A DNA stretch of 64,000 bases from Candidatus Pacearchaeota archaeon (GCA_016866995.1 VGKQ01000003.1:118-64117); one strand, 5' to 3'. Counted from the stretch's first letter, positions 7,668 to 64,000 are shown. Numbers and translations: made by a program. Notes: generated from the sequence alone by a model not told the origin.

Positions 7668-8150
7668 TTATCCAACTAACACGCTTCTTTCTTCATCTTC
7701 TCTTGCTTTTCTTCTTGCAAGATTTCTTGAAACTTCCATTAATTCTGGATATAAATTTCTTGCAGTTGCTTCACTAAAACCTAAGCTCTGCATAACTCCA
7801 AGATAATCGTCTGCTGTTAATCTGCATCCTGCATTAACTCCAAAATACAAGTTAGTTTCTTTTGCTTGTCGAGTTTCCTCAATCAACCCATTAAGAATCT
7901 TGCCGTGTCTTGGATACTGTTCTGCAAACTGATCAATAGCTTGTCTCATTGTTCTTGCTTTCTCAGTTACATCATCTTGCTCGACTCGTGCATAAACTCT
8001 CTCCCCGTGAAATTCCTGTCTAGGCAACAAAATTGCCTGTGCAATTTTTGGTTTCTGCCTTTTCAGCTTTCCATCCATGCTTGAAATTGGTATGTGTATC
8101 CTGTCTGTAGCAATTAATTCTATTATTTGCCTTTCAAGTTGTTCTGTCAT
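7668..8150 (-). CDS. hypothetical protein
   Basis: 160-aa ORF that looks GC-richer than its neighbours. No family recognised. Confidence 0.5.
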   Translation of the reverse strand: MTEQLERQIIELIATDRIHIPISSMDGKLKRQKPKIAQAILLPRQEFHGERVYARVEQDDVTEKARTMRQAIDQFAEQYPRHGKILNGLIEETRQAKETNLYFGVNAGCRLTADDYLGVMQSLGFSEATARNLYPELMEVSRNLARRKAREDEERSVLVG

Positions 8151-53660: not shown

Positions 53661-54497
53661 TTATTTTAGCTTTTTCAGCTCTTGAATTCTTTTTCTCGCA
53701 TCAATTGATTGCGAGAAAAGCTTCCAGAAAATTCTGGATAGCCATTCTGTCCAGTCCTTATCTTTGATTGTATAGAATATAAAAATCTTTTTATCAAGCT
53801 CGTGAAGCTTTCCTGTCGGCTCTTTTATCTCTTTTATCCTAAAAAGCTTGTTGTCAAAGATAAATGCCCTAATTGGATGCTCTCTATGTCTGATTTCTAT
53901 ACATTCTCTTCCATATTTGAAATTTAATGAAAGAACACGCTCTATATTATTTATTCCTGCAAGGTCTATTCTGCATAATATCTTTATTGTAACCCCTTTT
54001 TTCACAAGATCCTCTAGAATTTTGAATACATCAATTGTTTTATTTTTTAGATTTATAAAAGAAAGATTTCCAGAAAGAATTGTAAGCTGTTTCTCTGTTT
54101 TTTTAAATAATTCTCCCAGTTCCTTAAGATTGTCTCCTGATTCATCAATCGCTTTTTCTACTATTGCTTTTTTGTTTTTATCTTGAACATGCTGGAATAT
54201 GTCAAATGCTGAAAAGTCTTCTTTTTTCCTTGCTCTTAGTATTTCTTGTTCAAGCTGCTCTTGGAATACTGAACTTGAGGCTTTTTCTATACTGCTCCAG
54301 AAAACTATTTTTAATGCTCCTCTTGTTCCTTCTCTGAATACTCGGGTTGACAATGTTCCAAAATTCTTTTCTATATCTTGTATATATCTGTCTGCTGTTC
54401 TCCAGTTTTTTCCTGTATGTTCTGCTATTTCCTGTATGCTTCTCGGCTTCAGGTAGACAAAATCTTCTATTTTCTTTGTTATGGCACTATCTAACAT
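53661..54497 (-). CDS. wHTH regulator with TrmB-C/PLD-like C-terminal domain
   Basis: N-terminal wHTH (RSIQEIAEHTGKNWRTADRYIQDIE). The C-terminal beta-rich domain resembles the TrmB sensor half. Confidence 0.45.
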   Translation of the reverse strand: MLDSAITKKIEDFVYLKPRSIQEIAEHTGKNWRTADRYIQDIEKNFGTLSTRVFREGTRGALKIVFWSSIEKASSSVFQEQLEQEILRARKKEDFSAFDIFQHVQDKNKKAIVEKAIDESGDNLKELGELFKKTEKQLTILSGNLSFINLKNKTIDVFKILEDLVKKGVTIKILCRIDLAGINNIERVLSLNFKYGRECIEIRHREHPIRAFIFDNKLFRIKEIKEPTGKLHELDKKIFIFYTIKDKDWTEWLSRIFWKLFSQSIDARKRIQELKKLK

Positions 54498-57991: not shown

Positions 57992-58173
57992 ATTCTTATT
58001 AGTTTATTATTGTTTAAAAATGTTCTTTATTAACTCGCTATTTAAGATTTAATTGTTTATTATTAATAATTGTTTCTTGGATTTATTTTTACACTTTACT
58101 TTTAGAAAATATAGAAGAAATAAGAGAAAAACGAAAGTTTTATAAGGATAATCAGTATATAATAATTATATAC

Positions 58174-58202
58174 GCTCACCATTGCTTATGCAATGGGTGA
58201 GC
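58174..58202 (+). promoter_or_regulatory. perfect 12-bp-stem palindrome/hairpin just upstream of NYN copy 2
   Basis: gctcaccattgc-ttat-gcaatgggtgagc. It ends 7 nt before the ATG at 58210 and sits just downstream of the AT-rich TATA-like run 58155-58171. Confidence 0.55.
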
Positions 58203-58209
58203 ACCTAAA

Positions 58210-58809
58210 ATGAAGGTTTCTGTATTTATAGACGGAAATAATTTTTATCATGGTTTGAGATATATTTATGGCAAAGAAGCAAGATTAAAAATGTTTGATT
58301 ATAAGGGGTTTATAGATTATCTCTTAAAAGACAGAGAGGTTTCAGAAATTTTTTATTATAATGCTGAGCTTGACAAATCAAAAAATCAAGAAAAATTTAA
58401 AAGTCAGAAAGAATTTTTTAATAATCTAAAGAAAATACCCAAATTTAATTTAATATTATGCAAGTTATTAAAAAGAAAAATAAAAGGAACAAACAAATTT
58501 TATTATGTCCTTAAAGAGGATGATATACATATGGCTGTTGATATAGTAGAAGGAGCTTGCGAAGATAATTTTGATGTTGCTATTCTTGTATCAGGAGATG
58601 GTGATTTTGTTCCTGCTGTGAGGGCTGTTCAGAAGAGAAGCAAGATTGTGGAAAATATTTATTTCAAAAAAAGCTCATCCAGAAACTTAAAACAACATTG
58701 CAACAAATCTTTAGAGCTAACAAAAGAAATTTTAGACAATTTTTCCAGTCATTATCAAAAAACAAACCCGTTAGGGCTTATTAGCAGAAAATCTAATGAT
58801 TTTCGCTAA
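58210..58809 (+). CDS. NYN/LabA-like (PIN-related) domain protein, copy 2
   Basis: VSVFIDGNNFYH and AILVSGDGDFVPAVRAVQ signatures. The stop codon lies inside the first dif-like site. Confidence 0.7.
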   Translation: MKVSVFIDGNNFYHGLRYIYGKEARLKMFDYKGFIDYLLKDREVSEIFYYNAELDKSKNQEKFKSQKEFFNNLKKIPKFNLILCKLLKRKIKGTNKFYYVLKEDDIHMAVDIVEGACEDNFDVAILVSGDGDFVPAVRAVQKRSKIVENIYFKKSSSRNLKQHCNKSLELTKEILDNFSSHYQKTNPLGLISRKSNDFR

Positions 58810-58827
58810 AAGTCTGTTATATTCAAT
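58800..58827 (+). repeat. dif-like site J0 (array boundary, degenerate left arm overlapping the NYN stop codon)
   Basis: TTTTCGCTAAA-AGTCTG-TTATATTCAAT. The right arm is identical to J3, J5 and J10. Confidence 0.45.
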
Positions 58828-58982
58828 TCTGGGTTTGCCTTACAGGCACGCTTCGCTACCGAAAATTCTAATGTTGTTATCTTCGTTAAAATCATAAAGA
58901 AAACTCTCACAAAATTGCTACGCAACTTTGCCTAACAAAATTTTAACGAAATTGTTGAAAAAAACCTCCACCAAAAGCACAC
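58827..58982 (+). repeat. left arm of the segmented inverted repeat bracketing ORF 59022-59426
   Basis: Blocks ttctgggtttgcc, ccgaaaattc, gttgttat, ttgttgaaaaa and aaaagcac(ac) are each the reverse complement of a block in 59427-59489. The left arm carries extra inserted segments. Confidence 0.8.
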
Positions 58983-58992
58983 AAACGATAGA

Positions 58993-59000
58993 TTTAAATA
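58993..59000 (+). promoter_or_regulatory. TATA box of module ORF 59022-59426
   Basis: tttaaata is centred about 26 nt upstream of the ATG, the spacing expected for a leaderless archaeal mRNA. Confidence 0.5.
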
Positions 59001-59021
59001 ATTCTTAATTTAAATAAATAT

Positions 59022-59426
59022 ATGATGCCAAAAAATAACAAACCAGATGGTGTTTCAAATGCTTTAATCCTACTTTGGATAAGTCTTGGAGTAGGAGTTC
59101 TAAACAGCATAATTAATTTTTCAAATTCTGTTGATTTGGCACAAGGATATGGTTCTGGATTTGTTATTTTTGTAACTCTTTTCACATTGGTGTTTATGGC
59201 TTTCTTTATCTATATGATAGGGCAAGGAAAGAATTGGGCAAGAATCACTTTTTTGGTTCTATTCATAATTGGAATTCCTTTTTCCGTATTGCCTGCAATA
59301 GTCTTGCTTGTAACAAACCCAATCTCTGCAATGTTTTCAGCAGGCATAACTATATTGCAATTAATCGCACTAATTTTCTTATTCCAAAAAAGTTCTTCTG
59401 ATTGGTTTCATTCTATGAAAAAATAG
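59022..59426 (+). CDS. small membrane protein (module J0-J1)
   Basis: 134 aa, about 4 hydrophobic helices, own TATA box. Confidence 0.6.
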   Translation: MMPKNNKPDGVSNALILLWISLGVGVLNSIINFSNSVDLAQGYGSGFVIFVTLFTLVFMAFFIYMIGQGKNWARITFLVLFIIGIPFSVLPAIVLLVTNPISAMFSAGITILQLIALIFLFQKSSSDWFHSMKK

Positions 59427-59489
59427 TGTGCTTTCCAAAAATAATTTTTCAACAACTACAATAACAACGAATTTTCGGCAAACCCAGAA
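59427..59489 (+). repeat. right arm of the segmented inverted repeat bracketing ORF 59022-59426
   Basis: gtgtgcttt, tttttcaacaa, ataacaac, gaattttcgg and (gg)caaacccagaa. About 51 matched nt in five colinear blocks. Confidence 0.8.
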
Positions 59490-59491
59490 CT

Positions 59492-59530
59492 CGAGATTTT
59501 TCCCTTCGGGAACATTGCATTAAAATCTCG
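59492..59530 (+). other. module-terminal stem-loop preceding J1
   Basis: cgagatttt ... aaaatctcg (9 bp) enclosing the inner hairpin ttccc-ttc-gggaa. It ends 14 nt before the J1 left arm. Confidence 0.6.
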
Positions 59531-59544
59531 TCCTCATTTCATTC

Positions 59545-59572
59545 GGAGAAACTAACAGGGCTTATACGCGAT
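59545..59572 (+). repeat. dif-like site J1
   Basis: GGAGAAACTAA-CAGGGC-TTATACGCGAT. Confidence 0.55.
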
Positions 59573-59723
59573 AGCTCTTCTGAAGAAGACTACCTCTGCG
59601 GGGAAATTTATATTATCATCAGCAAGAATTTTTTAAAGTTAGCCCCTTGACCACGCAACAAGTTGCTCTCGCTTCATTATAAATCCATTTCATTCCTTTA
59701 TACATTCAGCTCGGGGGACTTAA
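59562..59723 (+). repeat. noncoding module R-div (diverged relative of module R) between J1 and J2
   Basis: About 160 bp with no ORF. It shares with R the 3' end ATTCAGCTCG..GGGA.T.TAA and an internal AGCCCC..ACCAC...TTGCTC.CGC block. Confidence 0.5.
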
Positions 59724-59740
59724 CACTAATTAGTTTCAAT
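59713..59740 (+). repeat. dif-like site J2
   Basis: GGGGGACTTAA-CACTAA-TTAGTTTCAAT. Confidence 0.55.
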
Positions 59741-59806
59741 AAGCGGGCGAGCTAAAAGTTAGTCAAAATTTTCAATTTTGAAGAAATAAATAAAATAGGG
59801 CAAGTC

Positions 59807-60049
59807 TTACTTCTTTTGTCTGTTGATTAATTCAGGTTCGCCAAAATTTCCATTACCATCATTTTTTGCAACAAATGTATCATAATCAGCAAAATCCCAA
59901 TGAGATTCACCATAATTTCCTGCGACAACTTCTTGTTTTTTATCATTATTCAAATCAACATAAGCATTATAATTTCTTGGTTGGTTGTCGCAACCAGCTA
60001 AAGCTAAAACCAATGCTCCAATTCCCAGTGCTTTTCTCATAAATCTCAT
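59807..60049 (-). CDS. small lipoprotein with FG-GAP-like motif (module J2-J3)
   Basis: Lipobox LALAGC. DLNNDKKQEVV and NDGNGNFG resemble FG-GAP/VCBS repeat cores. Confidence 0.6.
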   Translation of the reverse strand: MRFMRKALGIGALVLALAGCDNQPRNYNAYVDLNNDKKQEVVAGNYGESHWDFADYDTFVAKNDGNGNFGEPELINRQKK

Positions 60050-60071
60050 AGTTGATTGTAATTGACTTATC

Positions 60072-60079
60072 TTTATAAA
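60072..60079 (-). promoter_or_regulatory. TATA box of module ORF 59807-60049
   Basis: tttataaa is centred about 26 nt upstream of the minus-strand ATG at 60049. Confidence 0.5.
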
Positions 60080-60136
60080 TCTTTTGGTTAATTTACTACT
60101 TTATAGTTAATATTGATAACGCCGAATTCTGAACTC

Positions 60137-60153
60137 AAAATCCTTCGGATTTT
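60137..60153 (+). other. module-terminal hairpin preceding J3
   Basis: aaaatcc-ttc-ggatttt, a perfect 7-bp stem ending 2 nt before the J3 left arm. An outer bulged pairing CGCCGAA (60120-60126) with TTCGG-gt-CG reaches into the arm. Confidence 0.6.
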
Positions 60154-60155
60154 TC

Positions 60156-60183
60156 GGGTCGGATAACACAGCTTATATTCAAT
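60156..60183 (+). repeat. dif-like site J3
   Basis: GGGTCGGATAA-CACAGC-TTATATTCAAT. Confidence 0.65.
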
Positions 60184-60323
60184 TTCTTCACAATATTCTT
60201 TGTTCAGAAACTTTGGGCTCGATATACTAATCCCAAGAAACCACCAAAGCCCCACCACCCTTAATTGCTCGCCCAACCTTCCAGAGGAATTATTAACATA
60301 ATTCAGCTCGTCAGGGAATATAA
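60173..60323 (+). repeat. noncoding module R copy 1 (J3 to J4)
   Basis: 151 bp. Identical to copy 2 except for one C in a C-run (tcccaag versus tccccaag). Starts TTATATTC and ends GAATATAA (8-bp terminal inverted repeat). Confidence 0.9.
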
Positions 60324-60340
60324 CAGCGATTATGCACAAT
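60313..60340 (+). repeat. dif-like site J4
   Basis: AGGGAATATAA-CAGCGA-TTATGCACAAT. Confidence 0.65.
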
Positions 60341-60434
60341 AAATTTTTGGGCTCGGGCAGAATATAGTCTCGCAAATTTTCAATTTGCTTGTTATTTAGA
60401 ATAAGGGGCTTTGGCTAAAAGAAAAAAACTCTGC

Positions 60435-60884
60435 TTATCGTCTTCCGAAGCTTAATTCTCTAGTCCTTTCTGCATATGCTTTTCCATCGTTATGATCCTC
60501 CCCTATTCTTAATCTTCCGTTCTCATCGCGATTTGGAAAGAAATGAGGATTATAAAATGGATGAACAAGTTCATTATCATAAAGAACACTTCCATCTTTT
60601 GCATGAATAGACATGATTGCATCGGGTAATCCCAAAAATGGAATTCCAGTTGTACTTTTCATAATTTTTCTTCCTTGAAAAATATCCATATCTTGTATTT
60701 CTTCAGGAACTCTTTCTAAATGGGTTACAACCACATTAGAGTAGGGCGTTACTTCTTTTAATTTTCCCCTAATACATTTTCGTTTATTAAATTGATTAAC
60801 AAAAATAACACTTACAAATTCTCCAAGATGTTCAGGAAGTCTTTCCATTGCTTCAATTCTTTCAGCTTGATTCATCATTTTCAT
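60435..60884 (-). CDS. hypothetical protein (module J4-J5)
   Basis: 149-aa ORF, no family recognised. Confidence 0.55.
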   Translation of the reverse strand: MKMMNQAERIEAMERLPEHLGEFVSVIFVNQFNKRKCIRGKLKEVTPYSNVVVTHLERVPEEIQDMDIFQGRKIMKSTTGIPFLGLPDAIMSIHAKDGSVLYDNELVHPFYNPHFFPNRDENGRLRIGEDHNDGKAYAERTRELSFGRR

Positions 60885-61038
60885 TTACCTTATAAATAGA
60901 ATAAACAGCCCCTATTTAAACCTTTCGATTTTAACTACTTAGAAAAGACAACATAAAAGCCAAAGCCCCTAAAAACGAGCCCTCGCCCAAAAATTTACTT
61001 TCTCAGAAAACTTCGTTTTCTTCGAACTTTTTCACTCT

Positions 61039-61083
61039 GAAATTTCCAGCCTCTTTTCGCTTTCGCTCAAAGGGGGAAATTTC
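61039..61083 (+). other. module-terminal stem-loop preceding J5
   Basis: gaaatttcc ... ggaaatttc (9 bp), ending 7 nt before the J5 left arm. Confidence 0.55.
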
Positions 61084-61090
61084 GAGGAAA

Positions 61091-61118
61091 AAGGAAACTA
61101 ACACCAATTATATTCAAT
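61091..61118 (+). repeat. dif-like site J5
   Basis: AAGGAAACTAA-CACCAA-TTATATTCAAT. Confidence 0.65.
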
Positions 61119-61259
61119 TTCTTCACAATATTCTTTGTTCAGAAACTTTGGGCTCGATATACTAATCCCCAAGAAACCACCAAAGCCCCACCACCCTTAA
61201 TTGCTCGCCCAACCTTCCAGAGGAATTATTAACATAATTCAGCTCGTCAGGGAATATAA
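61108..61259 (+). repeat. noncoding module R copy 2 (J5 to J6)
   Basis: 152 bp. See copy 1. Confidence 0.9.
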
Positions 61260-61276
61260 CACCAATTAGCCAAAAT
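61249..61276 (+). repeat. dif-like site J6
   Basis: AGGGAATATAA-CACCAA-TTAGCCAAAAT. Confidence 0.6.
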
Positions 61277-61330
61277 TTTTTCCTGCTGGAAAAAACTCGA
61301 GTGAAATTAATCAATTGACCGCCCCCGCCC

Positions 61331-61343
61331 GATGGACAAGCGC
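61331..61343 (+). repeat. left copy of the 13-bp perfect inverted repeat bracketing ORF 61422-61868
   Basis: gatggacaagcgc, preceded by ccccgccc and followed by TAAC. Confidence 0.85.
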
Positions 61344-61363
61344 TAACGATAATTATTTAAAGC
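61336..61363 (+). repeat. possible dif-like site J6a (weak arms, overlaps the TATA region of the downstream ORF)
   Basis: ACAAGCGCTAA-CGATAA-TTATTTAAAGC. Confidence 0.35.
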
Positions 61364-61421
61364 ATACTTCCTTACAGATTCTAACCGAAAGGGCGAAAGA
61401 GTTCTGTGATAAAATTTGAAA

Positions 61422-61868
61422 ATGGACAATACAATTCAACCAGAATTAAGCAGATTTGCTAAATTTGTAGTTGGCGCCGTAGGTTCTGCCGTTGTTGCAC
61501 TTTGCACCTATCTTCCGATAATGAGCTTTACTGAAAAATATAATTCTTCATATCCTGAAATACAATCTAAGCTAAATTCTTGGGTGCAAAGTTCTCCAAG
61601 AAATGAAGTACAAGAAAGAAAAGATAGATTGCGCCAACTTGAAAGACAAGTTTTAGAAAAGGCTCAAATGTTTGATGGAAAACTGGGTCTGTCTTTCGAA
61701 GACCAAGCAAATCTGGCTAGAGAGTTGGGATATAAGGGAACTCTTTCGCAAGGAAGAAGATTCTATTTTGGGCAAGATATAAGAGGATTTCCAGAATCTC
61801 AACTTATTATTGGAAATGAATCTTTAGAAGTTAGTGAAGAAACTGCCCAAAATTACTTGAAAAAATAA
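61422..61868 (+). CDS. hypothetical protein with one N-terminal TM helix (module J6-J7)
   Basis: 148 aa from the ATG at 61422 (the track uses the TTG at 61416). The stop TAA lies inside an ATAAC half-site. Confidence 0.55.
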   Translation: MDNTIQPELSRFAKFVVGAVGSAVVALCTYLPIMSFTEKYNSSYPEIQSKLNSWVQSSPRNEVQERKDRLRQLERQVLEKAQMFDGKLGLSFEDQANLARELGYKGTLSQGRRFYFGQDIRGFPESQLIIGNESLEVSEETAQNYLKK

Positions 61869-61869
61869 C

Positions 61870-61882
61870 GCGCTTGTCCATC
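61870..61882 (+). repeat. right copy of the 13-bp perfect inverted repeat bracketing ORF 61422-61868
   Basis: gcgcttgtccatc, preceded by ATAAC and followed by ccccgccc-TAAC. Confidence 0.85.
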
Positions 61883-61911
61883 CCCCGCCCTAACAATAGT
61901 CTAATTTTACT

Positions 61912-61985
61912 CGCCCTATCAGGAGTATTCGCCTCAGCTCTGAAAAAGCTCCACTTTTTGCGGGTCGCTCACGAGGATAGGGTCG
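61912..61985 (+). other. module-terminal stem-loop whose 3' strand runs into the J7 left arm
   Basis: cgcCCTATC ... GATAGGGtcg, 9 positions with one mismatch. An inner aaaaag-ctcca-cttttt hairpin is present. Confidence 0.5.
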
Positions 61986-62007
61986 GATAACACCAATTAT
62001 GTCTAAT
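61980..62007 (+). repeat. dif-like site J7 (best match to bacterial dif)
   Basis: GGGTCGGATAA-CACCAA-TTATGTCTAAT versus E. coli dif GGTGCGCATAA-TGTATA-TTATGTTAAAT. 17 of 22 arm positions are identical by hand count. Confidence 0.7.
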
Positions 62008-62088
62008 TGTTCGAAGGCACTAAACTTAGAAATTAAAAGAGAGTTAAAGATGGCACTTCAATGCCCCCGACCACCTACCCTCAAATTC

Positions 62089-62361
62089 TCAATTCTTGTA
62101 AATCTTATCGTGATGATCAAAATCCGAGAAAAAGATAAAATTATTCATTTTGTCAAATTTGAATACAAGAACAAAATGCCCAACATGAGCTCTCTTAAAT
62201 TCTTTCATGTCATATCTTAAATTTTTATAATGCTCGATGTCAGGGCTATTTAAGACTTCATTCATCTTATTAAGAAGATTTTCGTAAAGTTGCTTGTCTT
62301 TTTTCTCAAGTTTAGCAAGAATTCTATCAAACTCTTTACTAGTCTTATATTGCCTCGGCAT
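62089..62361 (-). CDS. relE: RelE/ParE-family toxin (module J7-J8)
   Basis: 90 aa. The KLEKKDKQLYENLLNKMNEVL ... KNLRYDMKEFKRAHVGHFVLVFKFD ... FDHHDKIY pattern is typical of RelE/StbE toxins. Confidence 0.7.
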   Translation of the reverse strand: MPRQYKTSKEFDRILAKLEKKDKQLYENLLNKMNEVLNSPDIEHYKNLRYDMKEFKRAHVGHFVLVFKFDKMNNFIFFSDFDHHDKIYKN

Positions 62362-62362
62362 T

Positions 62363-62608
62363 TTACCTCTTTTCTATCTTCTTTCTTAATTGTTTGATAG
62401 AATTAAGGGTTTCGCCATAACCTTCTTCTTCAATTTTTCTTAATTTTTCTAAGTATTCAGGCCTTAATTCAGGTTCTATAATATTTGCTCCACATTCTAT
62501 AACAATTTTGGCAATAGCTTCACTTTTAGTCTTTAGATTATATCTAGCTTTAACTATATTCAAAATTTGATTAGCTTCATTAGGAATTTCAATCATTGCT
62601 TGAACCAT
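62363..62608 (-). CDS. putative antitoxin (DUF2683-like) of the RelE module
   Basis: 81 aa, ending 1 nt before the toxin start. The N-terminus IEIPNEANQILNIVKARYNLKTKSEAIAKIV resembles archaeal RelE-partner antitoxins. Confidence 0.55.
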   Translation of the reverse strand: MVQAMIEIPNEANQILNIVKARYNLKTKSEAIAKIVIECGANIIEPELRPEYLEKLRKIEEEGYGETLNSIKQLRKKIEKR

Positions 62609-62820
62609 TTTTACGATTTTATATATTTAGTATAAATATCTTATATATATGAAGTATATAAACCTTTCGTTTTTGAAAAAATTTACAAACAGCCAACCAA
62701 AATTTCTTCTTTTTCAAAAAAAGAAGCAAAAACCGCGCGCGTGCCCCAAAACGAAAACTATACTGCCGACGACTTTTGATTTTTTGCCTTCGCCGAACGT
62801 TGCGCTCTCGCCTTTGGCTC

Positions 62821-62848
62821 GGGGCGTATAACACAGCTTATAAGAAAT
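62821..62848 (+). repeat. dif-like site J8
   Basis: GGGGCGTATAA-CACAGC-TTATAAGAAAT. Confidence 0.65.
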
Positions 62849-62853
62849 ATTAC

Positions 62854-63201
62854 TCACGATTTTTGGGCTTTATTAAAACCTGGGACACCATAGAAATTAA
62901 CAGTATAAAGTCTGACAGATTTTGTGCCTAAAACACGCTGGTCTTCAAAGTTTCCAGGATACCCAAAATCTACTCTCATTAATCCTGCTTTTTCATCTTT
63001 AAGAACTAGAAAATATTCCAAGCCATTTGCTTCCGCAAGCATTCTCGCATCATCAATAACTCCTTGACTTTCTCGCCTAACATAAGTCTTTGTCAAAGCT
63101 AAACATACACTAGCAAGATTAAATGGTTTATTATCTGGTCCAACTATTGTTCCATTGCGTCCTTGAGTAAGCTGTTGCACCATGTTTTGAAGAAGTAACA
63201 T
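62854..63201 (-). CDS. hypothetical protein (module J8-J9)
   Basis: 115-aa ORF. A TATA-like tttaaaaata lies very close to the first ATG, so the internal ATG at 63183 (MVQQL) may be the real start. Confidence 0.5.
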   Translation of the reverse strand: MLLLQNMVQQLTQGRNGTIVGPDNKPFNLASVCLALTKTYVRRESQGVIDDARMLAEANGLEYFLVLKDEKAGLMRVDFGYPGNFEDQRVLGTKSVRLYTVNFYGVPGFNKAQKS

Positions 63202-63362
63202 AATATTTTTAAATCTTTTCTATTTGTGACTACCCTTGAGTTTTAATTGTAATTTTTAATAGCCCAAAAATCGTTCCGTCATAACTCAAAAAATTTATTG
63301 TCTCGTGGCGTTCCGCTCCACTCCACTACTCAACATAAATTTTTTGGTTTTTTCTGCGAAAA

Positions 63363-63390
63363 AACGAATATAACACCAATTATAATCAAT
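63363..63390 (+). repeat. dif-like site J9
   Basis: AACGAATATAA-CACCAA-TTATAATCAAT. Confidence 0.65.
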
Positions 63391-63529
63391 TTCTTCACAA
63401 TATTCTTTGTTCAGAAACTTTGGGCTCAATATACTAATCCCCAAGAAACCACCAAAGCCCCACCACCCTTAATTGCTCGCCCAACCTTCCAGAGGAATTA
63501 TTAACATAATTGGAAGTCAGGGAATATAA
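63380..63529 (+). repeat. noncoding module R copy 3 (J9 to J10)
   Basis: 150 bp. Differs from copies 1 and 2 at ttataatc versus ttatattc, gctcaat versus gctcgat, and a replaced patch cataattggaagtcaggg versus cataattcagctcgtcaggg. Confidence 0.9.
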
Positions 63530-63546
63530 CAGGCGTTATATTCAAT
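63519..63546 (+). repeat. dif-like site J10 (internally palindromic)
   Basis: AGGGAATATAA-CAGGCG-TTATATTCAAT. GAATATAAC-AGGC-GTTATATTC is a perfect 9-bp inverted repeat. Confidence 0.7.
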
Positions 63547-63583
63547 TTGCCCTACGGCGACTTAGAAGTAGAAAAATTGGGCT

Positions 63584-64000
63584 TTATTTACTAAAATATT
63601 GCAATATCATACTTGTTAAACCATACGCTGCTGCTCCAGATGCAAGTACTAAACCGGTTGTTAGCAATAGATGTTCTTTTAATAGAAATCTGTGGTGGAG
63701 CATAATTTCATCAGCAGCCTCCCCCATTTCAGAATCCACTCTTCCAGCGCATACATCATTTAAATATCTACGACCTTGTGGGCCTGATTTTAGAATTTTC
63801 CTTATTCTGTCCTTCGTATCAGGACAATTATTAAGTGCATATAGGGCCCAATCCAAAAATCTAAAAAATAAATTACTTGCATCGCCTGACCCTCTATCAT
63901 TATATATGCTCAACAACCTTGAAGCTGCAACAGAAGGCAATTTTCTTGCATCCTCATGAAGTATAGATTCAAAAAATGCTTCAACCTCGTCAATTGATGG
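63584..64000 (-). CDS. hypothetical protein with C-terminal TM helix, 5' end outside the window (module after J10)
   Basis: The frame stays open from the TTG at 63940 to the window edge (PSIDEVEAFFESILHEDARK ...), so the gene is truncated by the window. Confidence 0.5.
   Translation of the reverse strand, partial: PSIDEVEAFFESILHEDARKLPSVAASRLLSIYNDRGSGDASNLFFRFLDWALYALNNCPDTKDRIRKILKSGPQGRRYLNDVCAGRVDSEMGEAADEIMLHHRFLLKEHLLLTTGLVLASGAAAYGLTSMILQYFSK

Follow-up and report, generated by a model that had tools for sequence, protein, structure and literature searches.

What puts a row of dif-like sites into an archaeal chromosome, one at every boundary between small gene modules, and which enzyme could have put them there? 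The row in question lies at the right-hand end of a stretch of 64,000 nucleotides from Candidatus Pacearchaeota archaeon (GCA_016866995.1, VGKQ01000003.1:118-64117), which we call the window and number from its first letter. An initial annotation had taken the locus for a recombinase-built array of exchangeable modules, integron-like in function and bounded by Xer-type sites. That reading is now supported from two directions, by homologous arrays that adjoin a gene of the XerA family and by a right arm that resembles dif. In our view the locus is likely to be a cassette array in the chromosome of a Pacearchaeota (DPANN) archaeon, put together by a tyrosine recombinase of the XerA family whose gene lies elsewhere in the genome.

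Sites and the modules between them

Ten full sites of 28 bp lie on the + strand between 59545 and 63546, each made up of a G-rich arm ending in TAA, a centre of the form CANNNN and a right arm TTA(T/G)nnn(C/A)AAT (Table 1). Ahead of them, at 58812-58827, stands a right-half site, GTCTGTTATATTCAAT, from which the ..TAAC left arm is missing. The same locus continues on L003, a 36-kb contig of the same population (window coordinate = L003 coordinate + 48209), with one clear site at L003 16214 and a possible degenerate last one at about L003 17408. Twelve sites had been claimed for the window. The count comes down to ten full sites and one half, while the layout, the shared + strand orientation and the positions at module boundaries all stand.

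Chance did not produce these sites. The string ATAAC-N5-TTA, expected 3.5 times, turns up 15 times in the window, a number reached in 0 of 100 shuffles, and a weight matrix built from the window's own sites returns, at 12 bits or more on both strands of the 64 kb, the ten sites exclusively. A matrix scan of this kind had been proposed at the outset, and it finds no site outside the array within the window. All ten sites share the geometry of two inverted arms of about 11 bp around a 6-bp centre, and all point the same way, which is not the inverse flanking (C/D then D/C) of pdif modules.

The right arm of the sites closely resembles dif. Its conserved form, TTATATTCAAT, has as its reverse complement ATTGAATATAA, which equals the arm ATTGGATATAA of Pyrococcus abyssi dif (sequence from PMC2958812) at 10 of 11 positions; judged by this comparison, the right arm of the window sites is essentially an archaeal dif arm. 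Taken whole, the site at 63519 agrees with P. abyssi dif at 16 of 22 arm positions. A hand count had put the site labelled J7 at 17 of 22 arm positions with Escherichia coli dif, and our recount against the E. coli sequence given there returns the same figure (8/11 plus 9/11). The archaeal matrix also gives 20 bits to AGTGCGCATAACATAGATTATGTTAAAT, at about 7776-7803 of a Photobacterium arenosum contig (L094), which resembles a genuine bacterial dif; this hit speaks independently for the dif-like nature of the motif.

The sites coincide with the boundaries of modules of 0.15 to 1.2 kb, which hold one small gene or none, apart from one that holds a toxin-antitoxin pair (Pfam PF05016 ParE_toxin, E=6e-5, and PF10884 DUF2683, E=1e-6). 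Module content was thus described correctly from the start: single open reading frames (ORFs) on either strand, a toxin/antitoxin pair and a non-coding module of about 150 bp in three copies. Counting the pair as two, the twelve modules of the prolonged array carry ten ORFs, seven on the - strand and three on the + strand. Integrons line up co-oriented, promoterless cassettes behind a common promoter, Pc; here, in contrast, genes lie on both strands and, to go by TATA-like boxes, each ORF appears to have a promoter of its own.

Four modules hold no ORF. One measures 162 bp, and the other three are copies, 97-100% identical, of an element of about 151 bp that we call E. When the copies are aligned with their flanks, homology opens exactly at TTAT and closes at ..GGGAATATAACA; the copies disagree in the 4-5 nt in between and in all sequence beyond. 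Such a pattern reads as the signature of site-specific duplication at the 28-bp cores.

Two further kinds of repeat complicate the picture of a simple row of cores. The first is a perfect inverted repeat of 13-16 bp, peculiar to each cassette, which encloses promoter and ORF in 6 of the 8 modules with ORFs. Scored by a matrix of ungapped complementarity (RNAduplex energies were discarded, being confounded by length), non-cognate flank pairs mostly reach 6-11, with three higher cross-matches of 12-13. The left copy often carries TGGG(C/T)T, a motif that is also found in a loop of the hairpin sites described below. The second is a structured module with CTTCGG and TTGCA motifs that precedes each site. 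In an alignment of 47 copies, including window 59492-59566, it forms two hairpins, with compensatory changes in 9 of 12 base pairs and an invariant loop (G)CCTTCGG.A.CGTTGCACTAAA. The sites are therefore not the bare 28-mers they had been taken for. Hairpins and inverted repeats brought to mind transposons of the IS200/IS605 type, bridge-RNA (IS110) elements and miniature inverted-repeat transposable elements, and all three were dropped: each cassette has inverted repeats of its own, there is no transposase nearby, and it is to a tyrosine recombinase that the units are linked.

Could each module be a mobile element in its own right? The initial annotation had offered, as an alternative, a stack of integrative mobile elements exploiting Xer (IMEX), that is, plasmids or viruses that had each integrated independently at a dif site. 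Tandem integration does leave dif-like sites in direct repeat, as CTX- and TLC-type elements do. Modules this small are not autonomous elements, however. Annotation of ORFs and Pfam domains found in them no replication, capsid or other structural, virus, transfer or integrase gene, and three pattern scans of IMG/VR gave chance matches only, inside coding sequence. We regard stacked elements as a most improbable origin for the locus.

Related arrays and their recombinase

Arrays of the same kind exist elsewhere. A scan of genome contigs for the site together with TGGGCT, whose listed matches were mostly chance, yielded two real ones, L130 (Nanoarchaeota) and L119, contigs of other metagenome-assembled genomes (MAGs) with four to five co-oriented sites each. 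Their cargo differs from that of the window (a kinase, a SET-domain protein, methyltransferases, a FAD oxidoreductase), and the three loci have in common only short stretches of the pre-site module and the core. The pattern CCTTCGG-N4-13-TTGCA-N10-40-ACAGCGATTA reached much further into metagenomes, to at least 120 loci, about 115 of those listed being clearly the same element. Among these units the same left parts join different right parts and vice versa, always at the invariant core, as expected if the core is the crossover site.

It is these relatives that bring in the enzyme. With the Xer-like protein of another contig, L149, as tblastn probe, a tyrosine recombinase was found in 12 element-bearing loci, and in 12 of 12 its gene stands upstream of the units and divergent from them, which is the layout of an integron platform. 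A site G-TTAT(A/C/T)T(T/G)(C/T)AAT stands about 77 nt before the start codon in eight of the ten full-length genes. In three cases it reads GTTATATTCAAT, the same as the first site of the window. Integrons have a primary site, attI, beside the integrase gene and cassettes whose sites share one orientation. The relatives' units all point away from the recombinase gene; the first site of the window has the matching right half, with the NYN-domain gene in the position of the recombinase. The comparison with related MAGs suggested at the outset has borne fruit: homologous arrays exist and, where a recombinase is present, they stand in fixed geometry to a XerA-family gene.

What sort of enzyme is it? 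The array-linked recombinases are mostly 267-270 aa long (two have 286 and 292 aa), possess all catalytic residues and fall into at least three clades of 35-50% mutual identity, every one of them array-linked. They score 198-232 bits with NF040815, recomb_XerA_Arch (cutoff 220), and 172-220 bits with the integron-integrase model TIGR02249 (cutoff 265), which they match only at 1-178 and 236-305 of 315. The gap is the region of the additional domain that IntI carries near patch III; the alignment runs without insertion before HxLRH, and that region is absent from the recombinases beside the homologous arrays. Among solved structures they match P. abyssi XerA best (4a8e, E=8e-45), with VchIntIA behind it. 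Profile and structure matches together make this a XerA-like enzyme without the IntI-specific domain region. Within L213 (7144-8759) the array-linked recombinase gene shares its end with another ORF on that strand; the 270-aa product could be a partner protein or a further recombinase.

The family to which these enzymes belong is very large and conserved in Pacearchaeota and Nanoarchaeota; its best 120 clusters listed are 70-78% identical. We picked four members for their long contigs only, regardless of arrays. All four adjoin topA, SMC, RNA methyltransferase or RNase H genes, and in three a site precedes the start codon by about 76 nt and is itself preceded by an inverted repeat, GATTATCAATA..TATTGATAATC. 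All those with enough upstream sequence (n=3) carry cassettes of the window's architecture, and L274 repeats it exactly: right arm, inverted repeat, ORF, inverted repeat, hairpin module, ..CTAAC-AGGGC-TTA. In L273 the array extends over at least 8 kb and includes a DpnII-type restriction-modification system. About 790 nt upstream of its xerA (flipped coordinates 782-826) lies a symmetric site, ATTGAATATAAC-ATGAT-GTTAGTTTCAAT, whose two arms are both canonical; an inverted unit sits between it and xerA, and two methyltransferases, the DpnII-type endonuclease and an acetyltransferase follow beyond.

With these relatives in hand we could weigh the idea that the repeats are a structured RNA or regulatory family unrelated to recombination. 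Covariation in the hairpins 5' of the sites would suit such a family. Yet the units keep to one strand whatever the orientation of the genes, their halves are shuffled at an invariant core, their geometric link to a recombinase gene is fixed, and no Rfam family matches even at E<=1. An RNA family strikes us as very unlikely.

The relatives also show that the window's sites are not the usual form. Metagenome copies mostly have the core as the opening half of an imperfect palindrome resembling attC, R''(ATATAAC)-AGCGA-L''(TTAAGAG)-[60-125 nt with internal hairpins]-L'(CTCTTAA)-TCGCGAT-R'(G-TTAnnnnnAAT), whose L'' and L' boxes covary (TTAAGAG/CTCTTAA, TTAAGCG/CGCTTAA, TTATATG/CATATAA, TTATCTG/CAGATAA). 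Folded as single-stranded DNA, such copies close on a stem of 16-17 bp with a 2-nt bulge (z = -7.4, -5.4 and -2.8). The simple form, an R''-type arm and spacer joined straight to TTAnnnnnAAT, makes up about 12% of copies and all sites of the window, L130 and L119. Window sites are without the L''...L' part of the 57-141-nt R''-L''...L'-R' palindrome that defines an integron attC, and the junction that contains module E folds no better than shuffles (Table 1). Neither these sites nor module E could be accepted as a canonical attC: a GTT partner is missing from the range of 50-140 nt, the two spacers do not complement each other, and no fold is significant. Going by these alignments and folds, the window holds the compact form of a family whose usual form resembles integron attC. 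The contrast first drawn with attC hairpins accordingly applies to the window's own array and fails for the family, most of whose members have strongly folding, attC-like palindromes.

This is where an integrase-less integron cluster (CALIN) has to be considered, served by a canonical IntI acting on folded attC, with the window sites as decayed attCs. Ghaly et al. 2022 (PMC9668308) described archaeal integrons with six IntIs that have the additional domain and 539 attCs, mostly in integrase-less clusters; their list includes MAGs of Pacearchaeales and Woesearchaeales that have 3-4 attCs but lack IntI. The hairpin-type relatives, with their R''/L''/L'/R' boxes, AAC...GTT triplets, 2-nt bulge and strong folding, are probably part of what that survey counted. 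Every recombinase beside these arrays, however, has 267-292 aa and leaves the IntI additional-domain region unmatched, and E, whose junction folds no better than shuffles, was copied three times exactly at sites that lack L''...L'. A canonical IntI is improbable as the builder of this array. The same survey disposes of part of the novelty first supposed for archaea, where cassette arrays, including those of Pacearchaeales, have been published as integrons and CALINs. None was published with a Xer-type enzyme or simple sites, and to that extent the claim survives. Within our incomplete coverage of the literature we found no description of Xer-linked cassette arrays in Archaea, nor of their other features: a primary site some 77 nt ahead of the recombinase start codon, a hairpin module 5' of the sites, arrays composed of 28-bp cores alone.

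A proposed mechanism and its difficulties

If a XerA-family enzyme is responsible, the anatomy of the junctions suggests how it would work. Each module starts with the canonical archaeal dif-type arm (TTAT..CAAT) and ends with the conserved two-hairpin module followed by the weaker arm (..TAA); wherever two modules meet, the two arms and the 6-bp centre (CANNNN) form a dif-like core of 28 bp. A pair of such cores in direct repeat would recombine and release the module between them as a circle, and a circle could be inserted at any core, especially the first, attI-like one. In an E circle the left arm of a site would meet the right arm of the site before it, ...GGGAATATAAC-NNNNN-TTATATTCAAT... 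In related genomes the system forms an integron-like platform of xerA, the site some 77 nt upstream of it and then the cassettes. In the window, it is quite probable that XerA does this excising and inserting in trans. The model would explain the three near-identical copies of E, the mixed orientation of the genes and the integron-type cargo. We lean towards the compact cores being used as duplex DNA, like dif: with simple cores only in the window array, double-strand recombination is the most likely course here. The relatives' hairpin sites may be used as folded strands, like attC.

Several observations weigh against this account. Neither tblastn nor Pfam found a tyrosine recombinase in the window, as the initial annotation had said, or in L003, and a host xerA was not seen in the 73 kb of host genome examined, 9 kb of it beyond the window. 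Module order is identical in all contigs of the population (L001-L009, from several samples), with no ongoing rearrangement visible. None of the window's cargo proteins recurs in any other locus collected. The left arms of the window sites are poorly conserved. TAA and TTA are 6 nt apart in the window; xerA-proximal sites have 7 nt between them and the second half of attC-like sites has 8 nt, a variation unusual for one enzyme acting on duplex DNA. Lastly, the covarying 5' hairpins and the inverted repeats around ORFs hint at single-strand folding, for which a simple double-strand model has no use.

Some of these points suit a different history, in which the array was built by Xer, was then cut off from its platform, lost all but the simple cores of its sites and survives as a fixed relic in which recombination has ceased. 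No recombinase is adjacent, an NYN gene rather than xerA stands at the edge, the modules keep one order in all samples, and the last site is degenerate. Against a relic speak the near-identity of the E copies, which argues for recent site-specific duplication, the retention of the conserved matrix positions in all ten cores, and the precedent of CALIN-type arrays elsewhere that are recombined in trans (PMC9668308). A relic seems to us rather unlikely, though a more serious contender than the other rivals.

A cassette array worked by XerA would stand between several known systems. With integrons the relatives share a platform of tyrosine recombinase gene, adjacent primary site and tandem, promoter-poor small cassettes in direct orientation, a cargo rich in toxin-antitoxin genes, methyltransferases and unknowns, and attC-like imperfect palindromes with AAC/GTT triplets and extrahelical bases; integrase-less arrays are also known among integrons. 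Integrons differ in their integrase (the relatives' recombinase being XerA-like), in their hairpin sites where the window has simple cores, and in having neither a two-hairpin module before every site nor cassette-specific inverted repeats. Xer/dif resolves chromosome dimers; its archaeal form, XerA/dif (Cortez et al. 2010), offers the 11-6-11 core with ATAA-N6-TTAT, an arm nearly that of the P. abyssi site, XerA as the best match of the linked enzyme and, in relatives, an enzyme gene set among housekeeping genes. A chromosome normally has one dif, however, whereas here at least ten tandem sites bound genes, and the xerA-proximal site is only a putative dif. Like XerS/difSL and XerH/difH, the relatives pair one Xer-type recombinase with a cognate site beside its own gene; those systems are bacterial, and no cassette arrays are known at their sites. 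In Acinetobacter, pdif modules are likewise small, often carry toxin-antitoxin genes between Xer-type sites and move from one replicon to another. They differ in being plasmid-borne, with inversely oriented XerC/XerD sites, where the window has direct sites, a chromosomal setting and, we infer, a single XerA-type enzyme.

The locus in its host and what it may mean

The array is framed by ordinary genes. As predicted, it continues past 64000; L003 prolongs it by 3.4 kb, to 12 modules, and it ends at about L003 17425, before genes for a polyprenyl synthase and seryl-tRNA synthetase. At its 5' edge the NYN-domain protein is 100% identical to one that NCBI names from 'Candidatus Pacearchaeota archaeon'. 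Its C-terminus is some 19 aa longer than those of its homologues, and the contexts of three close ones in other Pacearchaeota (L145-L151) have no sites nearby; the array therefore probably remodelled the 3' end of the NYN gene, which it abuts. As a candidate for the array's enzyme the NYN gene was rejected, since close homologues without sites mark it as a conserved gene of the lineage and not a partner of the array.

Table 1. Coordinates of the array and its components in the window (contig L003 where stated).
Feature	Position	Strand	Remarks
NYN-domain gene	58210..58809	+	PF01936; stop codon abuts first site
Half-site GTCTG-TTATATTCAAT	58812..58827	+	attI-like, first in array; right half = site ~77 nt upstream of recombinase start codon in L189, L156, L185
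Cassette 1 ORF, 134 aa, membrane-like	59022..59426	+	inverted repeat 58827-58839 / 59477-59489 around ORF
Hairpin module	59492..59544	+	stem 1 CGAGATTTT/AAAATCTCG, loop CCCTTCGGGAACATTGCATT, then second hairpin; alignable with 45 metagenome copies
Site GGAGAAACTAA-CAGGGC-TTATACGCGAT	59545..59572	+	matrix 28.6 bits
ORF-less module 'B', 162 bp	59562..59723	+
Site GGGGGACTTAA-CACTAA-TTAGTTTCAAT	59713..59740	+	weight matrix
Cassette ORF, 80 aa, lipoprotein-like	59807..60049	-
Hairpin AAAATCC-TTCG-GATTTT of pre-site module	60137..60153	+	22 nt 100% identical to hairpin before first L130 site
Site GGGTCGGATAA-CACAGC-TTATATTCAAT	60156..60183	+	weight matrix
ORF-less module E, copy 1, ends TTATATTC...GAATATAA	60173..60323	+	fold z = -0.85 vs shuffles
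Site AGGGAATATAA-CAGCGA-TTATGCACAAT	60313..60340	+	matrix 37.0 bits
Cassette ORF, 149 aa	60435..60884	-	inverted repeat 60340-60352 / 60985-60997 around ORF
Site AAGGAAACTAA-CACCAA-TTATATTCAAT	61091..61118	+	weight matrix
ORF-less module E, copy 2	61108..61259	+
Site AGGGAATATAA-CACCAA-TTAGCCAAAAT	61249..61276	+	weight matrix
Cassette ORF, 150 aa	61416..61868	+	inverted repeat 61331-61343 / 61870-61882 around ORF
Site GGGTCGGATAA-CACCAA-TTATGTCTAAT	61980..62007	+	weight matrix
Toxin-antitoxin cassette	62089..62608	-	ParE/RelE-family toxin 62089-62361; DUF2683 antitoxin 62363-62608
Hairpin module of toxin-antitoxin cassette, GCCTTCGCC..CGTTGCGCT..CTCGG	62786..62822	+
Site GGGGCGTATAA-CACAGC-TTATAAGAAAT	62821..62848	+	weight matrix
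Cassette ORF, 115 aa	62854..63201	-	inverted repeat 62856-62869 / 63261-63274 around ORF
Site AACGAATATAA-CACCAA-TTATAATCAAT	63363..63390	+	weight matrix
ORF-less module E, copy 3	63380..63529	+
Site AGGGAATATAA-CAGGCG-TTATATTCAAT	63519..63546	+	perfect 8-bp inverted arms
Next cassette ORF, 3' part	63584..64000	-	226 aa in full at L003 15375-16055

Some features around the array and its NYN gene are worth recording in their own right. A strong hairpin, CGCTCACCATTGC-TTAT-GCAATGGGTGAGC, lies at 58172-58203, directly before the NYN start codon. In the Nanoarchaeota MAG contig L130 (1100-2520) an NYN homologue, 41% identical, sits inside the first cassette and is followed by a junction with a right arm only, GGGACAG-TTATTAATATT, as is the NYN gene of the window. 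In L149 (10546-14720; also in L150 and L151) an NYN homologue is followed immediately on its 3' side by the gene for a different Xer-like recombinase, of 279 aa and 35-39% identical to the array-linked ones, and by a series of small ORFs in one orientation; the 3' end of the NYN gene may serve an integrated element here as its attachment site. Distal to the last dif-like site, a direct repeat of about 26 nt, TTTATTGTTATTAATTTTGGAATTAT, surrounds a 101-aa ORF (L003 17531-17556 and 18088-18113) and may mark a boundary of another kind. Further upstream in the window, a 278-aa ORF on the - strand (53661-54497) lies beside topA, the position of xerA in L273. It was rejected as a recombinase, having no recombinase motifs and no Pfam match.

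Integron integrases are thought to descend from Xer-type recombinases, and we know of no living intermediate between a single resolution site and a platform for gene capture. We put forward, as a tentative proposal that goes well beyond our account of the locus itself, that the housekeeping XerA of Pacearchaeota and related DPANN archaea also does the work of an integron integrase. The enzyme's own site beside xerA would be where cassettes accumulate, plain 28-bp dif-like cores like those of the window would be enough for their capture and excision, and attC-like hairpins would be an elaboration of the same core. Such a living 'proto-integron' would link Xer/dif to the origin of integrons.

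Behind the array, then, stands an integron-like system linked to Xer that is widespread in DPANN archaea and apparently undescribed; the window holds a compact-site variant of it. A XerA-like enzyme is consistently linked to arrays whose dif-like cores range from the plain 28 bp of the window to the attC-like hairpins of its relatives, a finding of high interest for research on integrons, Xer recombination and the plasticity of DPANN genomes. If that link is functional, it would offer a testable model of how integrons arose, and compact 28-bp sites served by a small single recombinase might make a useful tool. It would also mean that integron finders keyed to IntI and attC hairpins miss a large reservoir of cassettes in DPANN archaea, which in one narrow metagenome scan already comes to more than 100 loci.

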